Positions 3,941 to 5,211 of a DNA stretch of 64,000 nt are shown here, one piece after another. The notes beneath the pieces were generated by a model. It was not told the DNA's origin and searched no databases. It was given only the letters and a program-made list of their open reading frames with translations. Source of the DNA: a virus (lineage: Duplodnaviria > Caudoviricetes); IMG/VR virus record IMGVR_UViG_644736339_000001; one strand, given 5' to 3'. Each line of letters starts with the position of its first letter. Position 1 is the stretch's first letter. Both the position numbers and the translations under genes were made by a program.

Positions 3941-5089
3941 TCAATTGAGGACCGCGACGACGTTGTCCGGCGTCCGGCACCACAACGTGTGCGTCTCGTC
4001 GCGACCGACCGACAGCCCATACTCGTTGATCCCCGGCCGGTCCGCGGCTTCCCACCGCGCCCACGCGTCCTCGGCGAGGCTCCACACATCCTGCGGCCCG
4101 TGCTGCTCGACCGTGGCGTCCTTCCACGGCGCTCCTTGCGGGACGTAGGCAACCGCCCAACTCCCGTCGGGTAGCGACAGCCACATGCAGTCGTCGCCGT
4201 CCTCCACAAGCGGCCCCGTGACATTCAGGCCGGGAACTGCGATCCGCGAAGGCCATGCCTCCTTCGCGGCTACGACCGCCGGTAGGTTCCAATCCGTTAC
4301 TGAGCAGCGCTTCTCATCCTCGGCTTGCTTCGCCGGCGCGGGCGGCCGGCTGGTGCGCGAGGCCATAAAATCCACCGGGAACCGCACCCTGCCCTCGGCT
4401 GTGCCGTCCTCGCCGACCCGCAGCTGCACATACAGGTCCAGGTCCGGCTGGCCGATCTTCAGTGGCGCACACACCAGCCCGCCCGGCCTTGTCTGCGCGA
4501 TCCACGCGGCTGGGATCCGGCGCACCGAGTGTGTTGCGGACACGCGGTCAAACGGCGCCAGCGCGGGACGCCCGGATTCCCCGTCGCCGACGAAGGCGAC
4601 CAGCGCCAAGCCGTCCCACACCCCCGAACTGTGCCAGTTCTCCACAGCGATACCGGCAAGCTCGGGATCGTACTCAACCGTCACCACTAGGCCTGCGGGC
4701 CCGACGCGGGCGGCCATCAGTGCCGCGGTCCAGCCGGTTCCGGTGCCGGACTCGAACACCCGCATCCCGTCGTCAAGATCGAGGGTGCCTAGCATGGCGG
4801 CGACCAGCATCGGCGCCGACAGCGAGCAGGTGGGCATGTTGTCGTCGCCGACCTGCGTGATGAACGGCTGGGTCACGGCGTGGACCGCCTCGTCCCAGTC
4901 CTGCTCGTTGTCTGCCCGATGCCGGGCGTCCCAGCCGTAGCCGTTCCATTCGAACCAGTCGTCGGGTGCGAAAGCAGACCGCGGGACGGCATCGAACACC
5001 TTGCGCCAAGCCGGGTCGGCAAGGGTGTCGTCTTCCCAGTAGGCCTCGGCGGCGATCCGTCCCGCGAAGTCGGTGTGCGTCTCGGGCAC
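3941..5089 (-). CDS. PIMT-family (RiPP PAMT-type) O-methyltransferase, ~382 aa
   Basis: SLSAPMLVAAML, VFESGTGTGWTAALMA, GDG...APFDRV, WIAQTRPGG; extended C-terminal domain with WEAADRP (WxxxGxP variant). GTG start at 5089 overlaps the precursor stop; the ORF-track start at 5464 is over-extended. Confidence 0.88.
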   Translation of the reverse strand: MPETHTDFAGRIAAEAYWEDDTLADPAWRKVFDAVPRSAFAPDDWFEWNGYGWDARHRADNEQDWDEAVHAVTQPFITQVGDDNMPTCSLSAPMLVAAMLGTLDLDDGMRVFESGTGTGWTAALMAARVGPAGLVVTVEYDPELAGIAVENWHSSGVWDGLALVAFVGDGESGRPALAPFDRVSATHSVRRIPAAWIAQTRPGGLVCAPLKIGQPDLDLYVQLRVGEDGTAEGRVRFPVDFMASRTSRPPAPAKQAEDEKRCSVTDWNLPAVVAAKEAWPSRIAVPGLNVTGPLVEDGDDCMWLSLPDGSWAVAYVPQGAPWKDATVEQHGPQDVWSLAEDAWARWEAADRPGINEYGLSVGRDETHTLWCRTPDNVVAVLN

Positions 5090-5211
5090 TAGCGCGGCTT
5101 CTTGTGCGTGCCGTTGCCGGGCTGCGTGACTGTGGTGGGGACGCCGTCGCCGGATGGCGCGGGGGCTGCGGGCGGGTTGTCCTTCGGCGGCTTCGGTGCG
5201 TGCTCGCCCAT
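5089..5211 (-). CDS. 40-aa putative RiPP precursor MGEHAPKPPKDNPPAAPAPSGDGVPTTVTQPGNGTHKKPR (imiditide/pamtide-like)
   Basis: Read manually: GGAGGATTCC-ATG RBS, TAG/GTG overlap with the methyltransferase, central DG motif, Pro/Lys/His-rich. Confidence 0.8.
   Translation of the reverse strand: MGEHAPKPPKDNPPAAPAPSGDGVPTTVTQPGNGTHKKPR

Follow-up and report, generated by a model that had tools for sequence, protein, structure and literature searches.

Within the window, the 64,000-nucleotide stretch of DNA that was analysed as a whole, a gene for a 40-aa peptide and a gene for a methyltransferase lie side by side on the minus strand; the two genes are translationally coupled and are conserved as a pair. 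The ORF that runs from 5211 to 5089 encodes the peptide MGEHAPKPPKDNPPAAPAPSGDGVPTTVTQPGNGTHKKPR, and its TAG stop codon (5091..5089) has one base in common with the GTG start codon of the methyltransferase (5089..5087). An earlier note, made from the sequence alone, had proposed this combination of a GGAGG, an ORF at 5211-5089, and a TAG/GTG overlap, and direct reading of the DNA bears it out. The features of the locus, with the basis for each, are given below.

3563 to 3919, minus strand: 118-aa ORF with a hydrophobic N-terminal segment, 22 nt 3' of the methyltransferase gene; no family match
3941 to 5089, minus strand: PAMT-type O-methyltransferase, 382 aa, GTG start (Pfam, NCBIfam, PHROG, structural model, N-termini of homologues)
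3944 to 4402, minus strand: extra C-terminal domain of the methyltransferase, approximately residues 230-382 (alignment; Foldseek match to 1DL5)
4034 to 4054, minus strand: W346-E-A-A-D350-R-P352 (W346xxxD350xP352), a variant of WxxxGxP
4190 to 4204, minus strand: acidic loop E296-D-G-D-D300; DGD is the same throughout the clade, E nearly so
4454 to 4828, minus strand: PIMT catalytic core, residues 88-212 (Pfam, alignment, model)
4733 to 4747, minus strand: SAM-binding G115-T-G-T-G119 (GXGXG; none of the three glycines varies within the clade)
5089 to 5211, minus strand: precursor peptide gene, 40 aa plus TAG (GC3, synteny, 12:4 codon changes, homologues)
5146 to 5148, minus strand: Asp22 codon GAC, flanked by two Gly codons; predicted methylation/aspartimide site
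5217 to 5221, minus strand: Shine-Dalgarno GGAGG, read directly, with a 5 nt spacing to the peptide ATG at 5211
5262 to 5483, minus strand: doubtful 73-aa ORF 5' of the peptide gene; weak GC3 signal, not conserved in the related loci L023 or L024
62681 to 64000, plus strand: integrase of the prophage, at its right end; attR and tRNA-Pro follow shortly after the window's last position (approximately 64086-64165 in window numbering)

Base composition has been used to determine which frame of the short upstream region is coding. Across 5092-5211, GC3 is 0.90 in the peptide frame versus 0.72 and 0.64 in the remaining frames; by codon position, GC is 0.70/0.62/0.90 in the peptide frame and 0.90/0.72/0.64 in the methyltransferase frame. 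The profile of the peptide frame is typical for DNA of 66% GC, which argues that this is the coding frame. These values bear on the possibility that the 40-codon ORF is simply a chance frame in GC-rich DNA and that the methyltransferase actually begins at a TTG at 5464, yielding a protein of 507 aa. The methyltransferase frame is indeed open as far as 5464, and short ORFs are common at 66% GC. However, between 5092 and 5211 the methyltransferase frame looks non-coding (GC3 0.64, GC1 0.90), all 27 of the aligned methyltransferase homologues start at the position of the window's GTG, and the peptide is conserved in at least six independent sequences. Given the GC values and the starts of the homologues, the 507-aa protein was rejected and is effectively refuted; a chance ORF is hardly credible. 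A 44-aa version of the peptide that would initiate at a TTG was also rejected, again from GC by codon position and comparison with homologues. The one part of the earlier note that fails here is its description of the peptide as unannotated: the exact 40-aa sequence is already recorded in NCBI, UniRef, and nr, and the peptide therefore counts as annotated.

Beyond the doubtful 73-aa ORF, the stretch from approximately 5484 to 5660 carries no coding signal and may be a promoter region. (In L023 and L024, a divergent intergenic region immediately precedes the peptide gene.) A scan of 3300-7600 for σ70 promoters and terminators found no promoter; the consensus used covers actinomycete promoters poorly.

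Homologues of the peptide show that its gene is genuine and under selection. A metagenome scan recovered three loci (L023, L024, and L026) that include the start of a methyltransferase homologue, 52-56% identical, and in each of these a related small ORF is positioned directly upstream, joined to the methyltransferase by a GTGA stop/start overlap; in L023 and L026 the GGAGG is also present at unchanged spacing. The encoded peptides are MGKHDKPTPPPSPSPNPPGNGDGVPADVAKPGNGDHKKK in L023, MGKHDKPTPPPQPSPNPPGNGDGVPTDVTKPGGGDHKKK in L026, and MGSHGKPPPKDNPTPTSPPGNSDGKSPAVSDPGKGKHGGG... (partial) in L024. Sixteen of the 40 codons differ between L023 and L026, with 12 synonymous and 4 non-synonymous changes, and this 12:4 distribution indicates that the peptide gene is under purifying selection. 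When the 40-aa peptide was used as a query, nothing was found beyond its own 90% cluster. Two members of that cluster, P0107 and P0108, are 87-90% identical to the window peptide and keep PSGDGVPTTVTQPG-x-GTHKK unaltered. The P0107 peptide and the P0010 methyltransferase are each recorded from a 127,003-bp contig, and P0010 has only 68% identity to the methyltransferase of the window. Since the peptide is 87-90% identical while the enzyme is only 68% identical, the peptide is more tightly constrained than the enzyme in this lineage. Overall, the peptide is found upstream of methyltransferase homologues that span 52-68% identity.

The peptide is rich in proline (25%), with 12% glycine, 10% lysine, and 5% aspartate (2 Asp), and has a net charge of +2. 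It has an MGxH N-terminus, a central G-D22-G, and a GTHKK C-terminus, and it contains neither a hydrophobic segment nor a signal sequence. In an alignment of 18 sequences, the subfamily composed of the peptides of the window, L023, L026, L024, L046, L044, and L012 follows the pattern MG-x-H-x-KPP ... P-(G/N)-x-D-G ... P-G-x-G-x-H-K. The similar termini that had been pointed out previously, a G-x-H-x-K at both ends around the central DG, are thus a property kept across the subfamily rather than of one peptide. The DG at position 21-23 is kept in all seven subfamily peptides; D11 is not conserved, leaving D22 as the sole Asp conserved throughout. This conservation fits the predicted site of modification, which is assigned by analogy with published imiditide chemistry.

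As judged from its predicted structure, the enzyme consists of a PIMT fold followed by a C-terminal domain typical of RiPP-associated PAMTs. Pfam PCMT (PF01135) matches residues 88-212 (8.6e-28), a core that includes an LSAP motif at residues 90-93, and the phage family PHROG 13505 matches from end to end (9e-70). The best NCBIfam match, which is full length (8e-69), is to TIGR04188, which models the methyltransferase of ATP-grasp peptide maturase (graspetide) systems; it weighs against a RiPP cassette of the kind favoured below that the window enzyme scores below the cut-off of this model (232.7 bits versus 380) and has no adjacent ATP-grasp gene. An AlphaFold2 model made with 28 homologues has a pLDDT of 92.5 and a pTM of 0.89. 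Its top Foldseek match is Thermotoga maritima PIMT (1DL5), which aligns over both domains (377 columns, E 5.7e-21) with 20% identity, and canonical PIMTs align to the first ~240 residues of the model with an rmsd of 2.6-3.0 Å. A search for a solved structure of a RiPP-associated PIMT found none; the best sequence match in the PDB is again the T. maritima PIMT. The nearest named relatives, to which the window enzyme has at most about 40% identity, are actinomycete 'methyltransferase domain-containing' proteins of the PAMT type, 360-410 aa in length. Within the tree, the enzyme belongs to a clade of 14 rows that has 100% support and is set off by a branch of 0.87 changes per site; this clade is known almost only from metagenomes, and the closest homologues lie on contigs of 80-127 kb. 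The gene was not found in 30 further genomes of the same family, 12 of which are in the same genus. Residues that are invariant or nearly so in the clade comprise S89, S91, and P93; G115, G117, and G119; E296-D-G-D-D300; and W346 and P352.

Could the enzyme instead be a general isoaspartate repair PIMT, acting on aged virion or host proteins, with the neighbouring ORF irrelevant to its function? Its catalytic domain does match canonical PIMTs, and T. maritima PIMT, which is a repair enzyme, likewise has a C-terminal domain; the latter, however, has no coupled peptide. In addition, the full-length matches are to a RiPP-associated family and to a phage family of the same architecture, whereas the score against TIGR00080, the equivalog for the repair PIMT Pcm, is 71.5 bits versus a cut-off of 159, and every one of the NCBIfam repair-PIMT equivalogs falls far short of its cut-off. 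The nearest named relatives are of the PAMT type, the genome already has three further PIMT-domain genes elsewhere, and a repair function would leave the conserved, coupled peptide without an explanation. A repair enzyme is consequently a very improbable reading of this gene, and assignment to the RiPP-associated PAMTs is preferred.

The C-terminal domain had been described as containing a 'WxxxGxP-like' sequence, and this description is accurate: W346 and P352 are present, and D350 replaces the G. Position 350 is a G in 24 of 28 clade members; the G is missing in the other four as well as in 6 of 21 broader relatives, in which D or S is found instead. The replacement counts against the assignment in that lasso-associated enzymes lose activity when WxxxGxP is disrupted (Cao et al. 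2023, bioRxiv 10.1101/2023.04.07.536058). Comparison of these sequences indicates that D350 is a natural variant, which may or may not affect function.

The cassette sits in a leftward-transcribed block of small genes (approximately 7800 to 3563) that has rightward-transcribed blocks on both sides, and within ~4 kb either side no ORF with coding signal exceeds ~230 aa besides the methyltransferase. The 118-aa ORF is probably co-transcribed with the methyltransferase. This membrane ORF was considered as a third gene of the cassette and was rejected, as no homologue lies downstream in L023, L024, or L025. L023 and L024 have several further genes in common with the prophage, yet the arrangement is preserved for the peptide-enzyme pair alone. 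A survey of the 20 neighbouring ORFs (~5 kb) with Pfam and PHROG found no ATP-grasp, Lan, lasso, YcaO, transporter, or protease gene. The earlier statement that no transporter or protease is nearby thus agrees with the recognisable content of this region.

The window corresponds to G000:C1:3300733-3364732 within the 10.47-Mb single-contig genome of an actinomycete, where it forms part of a 136.9-kb prophage. The element is bounded by a perfect 50-bp direct repeat (3227924-3227973 and 3364818-3364867), the right copy of which overlaps the 3' end of tRNA-Pro(GGG) and adjoins the integrase, ~58 kb from the cassette. Besides the integrase, the window encodes RecE/RecT, a Dcm methylase, ParB-like proteins, a replication initiator, an HNH endonuclease, PNKP, RNA ligase, Ku, and TnpB; to the left of the window are genes for the portal, prohead protease, major head protein, tape-measure protein, and DnaB, together with three tRNA genes. 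GC3 is 0.78-0.88 within the element versus 0.90-0.97 in the flanks. The prophage location that the earlier note had proposed is therefore well founded, given the att repeat at tRNA-Pro, the adjacent integrase, and the portal, protease, major head, and tape-measure genes. A megablast search of the region against phage records gave no match. (Among sequencing runs, no RNA run containing the stretch was listed. Three DNA runs that cover some of it match the window exactly, and because one of them runs into vector polylinker, these are clones of the same organism and do not constitute independent evidence.) The cassette is an accessory gene pair, carried as stable cargo by one lineage of large actinomycete prophages.

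A peptide gene coupled to a PIMT homologue with an extra domain recalls the imiditides and the type I pamtides. The filters used to mine for imiditides are a PIMT homologue of 300-450 aa with GXGXG and an extra C-terminal domain of 110-180 aa; a same-strand precursor ORF of 30-75 aa with at least one Asp, located ≤500 bp upstream or ≤1000 bp downstream; and the absence of another RiPP enzyme. WXXXGXP and a 41-aa C-terminal signature motif were also used (bioRxiv 10.1101/2023.04.07.536058). For type I pamtides, of which 1414 loci have been tallied, the precursor is ~45 aa, rich in Gly, Pro, and Asp, and has a conserved Asp beside a Gly or Pro (Lee et al. 2023, PMC10787088). The window enzyme has 382 aa, with ~150 aa past the PIMT core in a fold predicted with pLDDT >90, and, apart from the variant residue in WXXXGXP, the pair agrees with every published mining criterion that could be tested, as anticipated by the earlier suggestion of a two-gene precursor-PAMT cluster. 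MGKH-type ORFs also precede enzymes of ~40% identity in sampled actinomycete genomes. Together, the agreement with the mining criteria and the MGKH-type ORFs upstream of relatives place the locus within a known kind of RiPP.

Comparison with individual systems refines this placement. In the imiditide system NmaA/NmaM of Nonomuraea maritima (Cao et al. 2023, JACS 145:18834), as here, the precursor gene is directly upstream of a gene for a PIMT homologue of ~370-380 aa with a C-terminal domain, and there are no further conserved genes. Like the window peptide, imiditide precursors are linear, 30-75 aa in length, and rich in Gly, Pro, and Lys, with a conserved His and a central Asp; an acidic C-terminal loop is also shared, being DEDGD in NmaM and EDGDD in the window enzyme. 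However, the window enzyme differs from the NmaA/NmaM system in belonging to a distinct clade on a long, fully supported branch, in having D for G in WxxxGxP, and in being prophage-borne. The type I pamtide system SpaA/SpaM of Streptomyces sparsogenes (PMC10787088) has a Gly/Pro-rich precursor with a conserved Asp-Gly, which the window peptide shares, although its Asp content (5%) is below the type I pamtide average of 10.2%. The PIMT homologues of graspimiditide, lassimiditide, and lanthimiditide systems (TIGR04188, TIGR04364) have the same architecture, but the window enzyme scores under both cut-offs. The substrates of these three groups of enzymes are peptides cyclised beforehand; near the window locus there is no ATP-grasp, lasso, or Lan enzyme. 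An MGKHG...GDG stretch also occurs in graspetide precursors of the pamtide data set.

These comparisons also bear on the possibility that the methyltransferase modifies another phage or host protein, such as one rich in Pro and Gly as proposed for FHA-linked PAMTs, and that the small ORF encodes an independent conserved small protein or is a coupling/leader ORF that tunes translation. In favour of this reading, 1410 PAMTs adjoin FHA proteins that contain Pro/Gly-rich regions, and for 3653 PAMTs no substrate is identified (PMC10787088); moreover, translational coupling by itself is no proof of an enzyme-substrate relation. Nevertheless, the peptide has the composition and the conserved Asp-Gly of validated substrates, the pair and nothing more is conserved across related phages, and the conservation at the amino acid level (12:4) would be needless for a mere coupling ORF. 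We consider another substrate unlikely, if less so than a repair function. In light of the known systems, the locus is very probably a minimal imiditide/type I pamtide RiPP cassette, present as an accessory gene pair of a 136.9-kb temperate phage at tRNA-Pro, in which the peptide would be modified by the adjacent enzyme.

The published NmaA/NmaM and SpaA/SpaM systems suggest how such a modification would proceed. The acidic C-terminal loop (EDGDD), along with other charged surfaces of the enzyme, would bind the basic, proline-rich, linear peptide; in NmaM, replacing the acidic DEDGD loop greatly lowers modification (2026 review of aspartimide RiPPs). Again by analogy with these two systems, the side chain of Asp22 would be methylated using SAM, adding 14 Da. 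The amide nitrogen of Gly23 would then attack the methyl ester to generate an aspartimide, 18 Da lighter than the unmodified peptide, which would slowly hydrolyse to isoAsp or Asp. Neither leader cleavage nor a dedicated exporter would be involved.

Similar cassettes are carried by other phages. Using tblastn, full-length relatives of ~37% identity were found in five phages of Streptomyces venezuelae that belong to the genus Austintatiousvirus. In the three of these that were examined, an annotated small CDS containing MSGKHGGGSGSGSGG...NSSDGSGPAK ends 8 nt before the enzyme gene; the cassette has the lysis cassette on one side and the immunity and integrase genes on the other, and is encoded on the opposite strand to the late genes. 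The peptide and methyltransferase genes are gp25 and gp24 in Ididsumtinwong and Austintatious, and HQ601_00034 and HQ601_00033 in Alderaan. Scans of IMG/VR with the single protein and with an alignment of the close clade gave no matches, and a scan of genome contigs returned only a distant, irrelevant match. A scan of IMG/VR with the broader alignment A2, in contrast to the narrower queries, identified 33 viral contigs with such enzymes, and in ~20 of the 33 an MGKH-type or Gly/Pro/Asp-rich ORF is located directly upstream (for example L044 and L046, the latter encoding MGKHEKPPKDPSQGKPPPGNSDGRVPPPPQPDPKHAKPKGK). L055 carries the cassette at a distance of 2 kb from its genes for terminase and portal, and in other IMG/VR contigs an integrase or phage-type regulators lie beside it. 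Biosynthetic clusters for peptides (RiPPs or bacteriocins) in temperate phages or prophages have been described before, reportedly chiefly in temperate phages of commensal and pathogenic bacteria (Dragos et al. 2020, bioRxiv 10.1101/2020.10.01.322628); the window cassette has no recognisable export or immunity gene. The imiditide, pamtide, and cysimiditide literature that was surveyed makes no mention of phages, and a full-text search found no paper linking the two.

The tree mixes viral with chromosomal enzymes and forces at least 12 label changes, a pattern that suggests repeated exchange of these enzymes between viruses and chromosomes. (The labels are approximate: prophages may have gone unrecognised among the 'chromosomal' rows, and IMG/VR contigs may in some cases extend into host DNA. 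The survey of upstream ORFs and the tree contained 16 host rows, two of which, L008 and L019, are from the unpublished genome G044; none of the conclusions depends on these two.) The idea that imiditide cassettes are generally prophage-borne was rejected: no HK97 capsid gene was found near any of nine chromosomal cassettes in five host genomes. Most of the sampled chromosomal cassettes are thus not near a phage capsid gene, so phage carriage applies to a subset of the family.

Tying aspartimide RiPPs to a biological function is the main open problem for this class (2026 review of aspartimide RiPPs). For the peptide of the window, our best guess, with roughly even chances of being right, is that the modified form has a single, specific macromolecular target within the infected or lysogenic cell. 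The earlier note had likewise suggested that the modified peptide may act intracellularly, in phage conflict, timing, or signalling. An intracellular, target-specific role is suggested because the peptide outconserves the enzyme, a relationship that in this lineage points to a specific target, and because the peptide has no hydrophobic segment or signal sequence and no recognisable exporter or protease gene is nearby. Intracellular anti-phage lanthipeptides in Actinomycetota provide a precedent. Alternatively, it could function as a cationic peptide that is released at lysis. A broader and less probable proposal is that actinomycete phages repeatedly capture imiditide cassettes and that the aspartimide/isoAsp peptide is an intracellular effector. 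Such an effector could serve in host takeover, counter-defence, superinfection exclusion, or as a lysis-lysogeny signal, and its electrophilic aspartimide might trap a specific protein of the host or of a rival phage. If true, this would be the first biological function for this RiPP class. The known enzymology is left unchanged by these findings; what is new is the recurrent carriage by phages, which offers a tractable route to function by turning a chemical curiosity into a genetic question, namely whether deletion of two genes from a phage gives a phenotype. Three cultured phages of S. venezuelae, Alderaan, Austintatious, and Ididsumtinwong, would allow the effector proposal to be tested. 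Outside of phages and chromosomes, relatives are present on 76 actinomycete plasmid records as well.

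Among relatives of the cassette, the precursor peptide is better conserved than its enzyme: comparison of the peptide encoded at window 5089-5211 with relatives that include P0107 places identity at 87-90%, whereas the methyltransferases (window 3941-5089 versus the relative P0010) share only 68%. Throughout the three peptide sequences, the core PSGDGVPTTVTQPGxGTHKK is unchanged. In supplement file 2 of PMC10787088, precursors of PAMT-associated graspetides have the pattern ...EMGKHGT...GGGDGQ..., an MGKH ... GDG arrangement that they share with free-standing imiditide-type peptides. 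This shared arrangement suggests that the stand-alone precursors may resemble the core regions of graspimiditides.

The cassette resides within a prophage that is unusually large among integrated actinomycete siphophage-like elements, and a further small ORF follows the methyltransferase gene.

G000:C1:3227924-3364867, prophage of 136.9 kb that contains window 1-64000, flanked by att repeats (50 bp, perfect) at tRNA-Pro(GGG)
Window 3563-3919, minus strand, 118-aa ORF starting 22 nt past the methyltransferase stop, with an N-terminal hydrophobic helix

Besides its own three tRNA genes (two Ser, one Met), the prophage contains genes for Ku, PNKP with an RNA ligase, RecET, Dcm and a TnpB, plus two ParB-like genes. 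The 118-aa ORF has no family match, and related loci show no conserved counterpart.

Possible phage carriage of the second pamtide type is suggested by an isolated phage, Saccharomonospora phage PIS 136 (JX006077).

L035:2375-3096, PIMT homologue, its annotation split in two pieces
L035:4675-4920, 81-aa ORF about 1.8 kb downstream of the PIMT homologue

Within the 81-aa ORF, two CxxCxGxG motifs flank an Asp-rich stretch (...CPDCNGTGWDDRKDDQCNMCGGVG...), the sequence signature that marks type II pamtide/cysimiditide precursors. Because the ORF bears this signature, type II pamtides may also be phage-borne.

In two viral IMG/VR contigs (L042:7170-8378 and L049:7104-8297), a phage transcriptional regulator of about 400 aa (phrog_5823) directly follows the methyltransferase, and in Austintatiousvirus, a genus of Streptomyces venezuelae phages, immunity genes adjoin the cassette. 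Such placement may point to a tie between the cassette and the lysogeny module; the window shows no such link.

Across 3400-5700, three public DNA sequencing runs (X2-X4) contain stretches that match the window exactly; they probably represent clone libraries made from the same strain. One contig from these runs terminates in a BamHI-XbaI-SalI-like polylinker (GTGGGATCCTCTAGAGTCGA).
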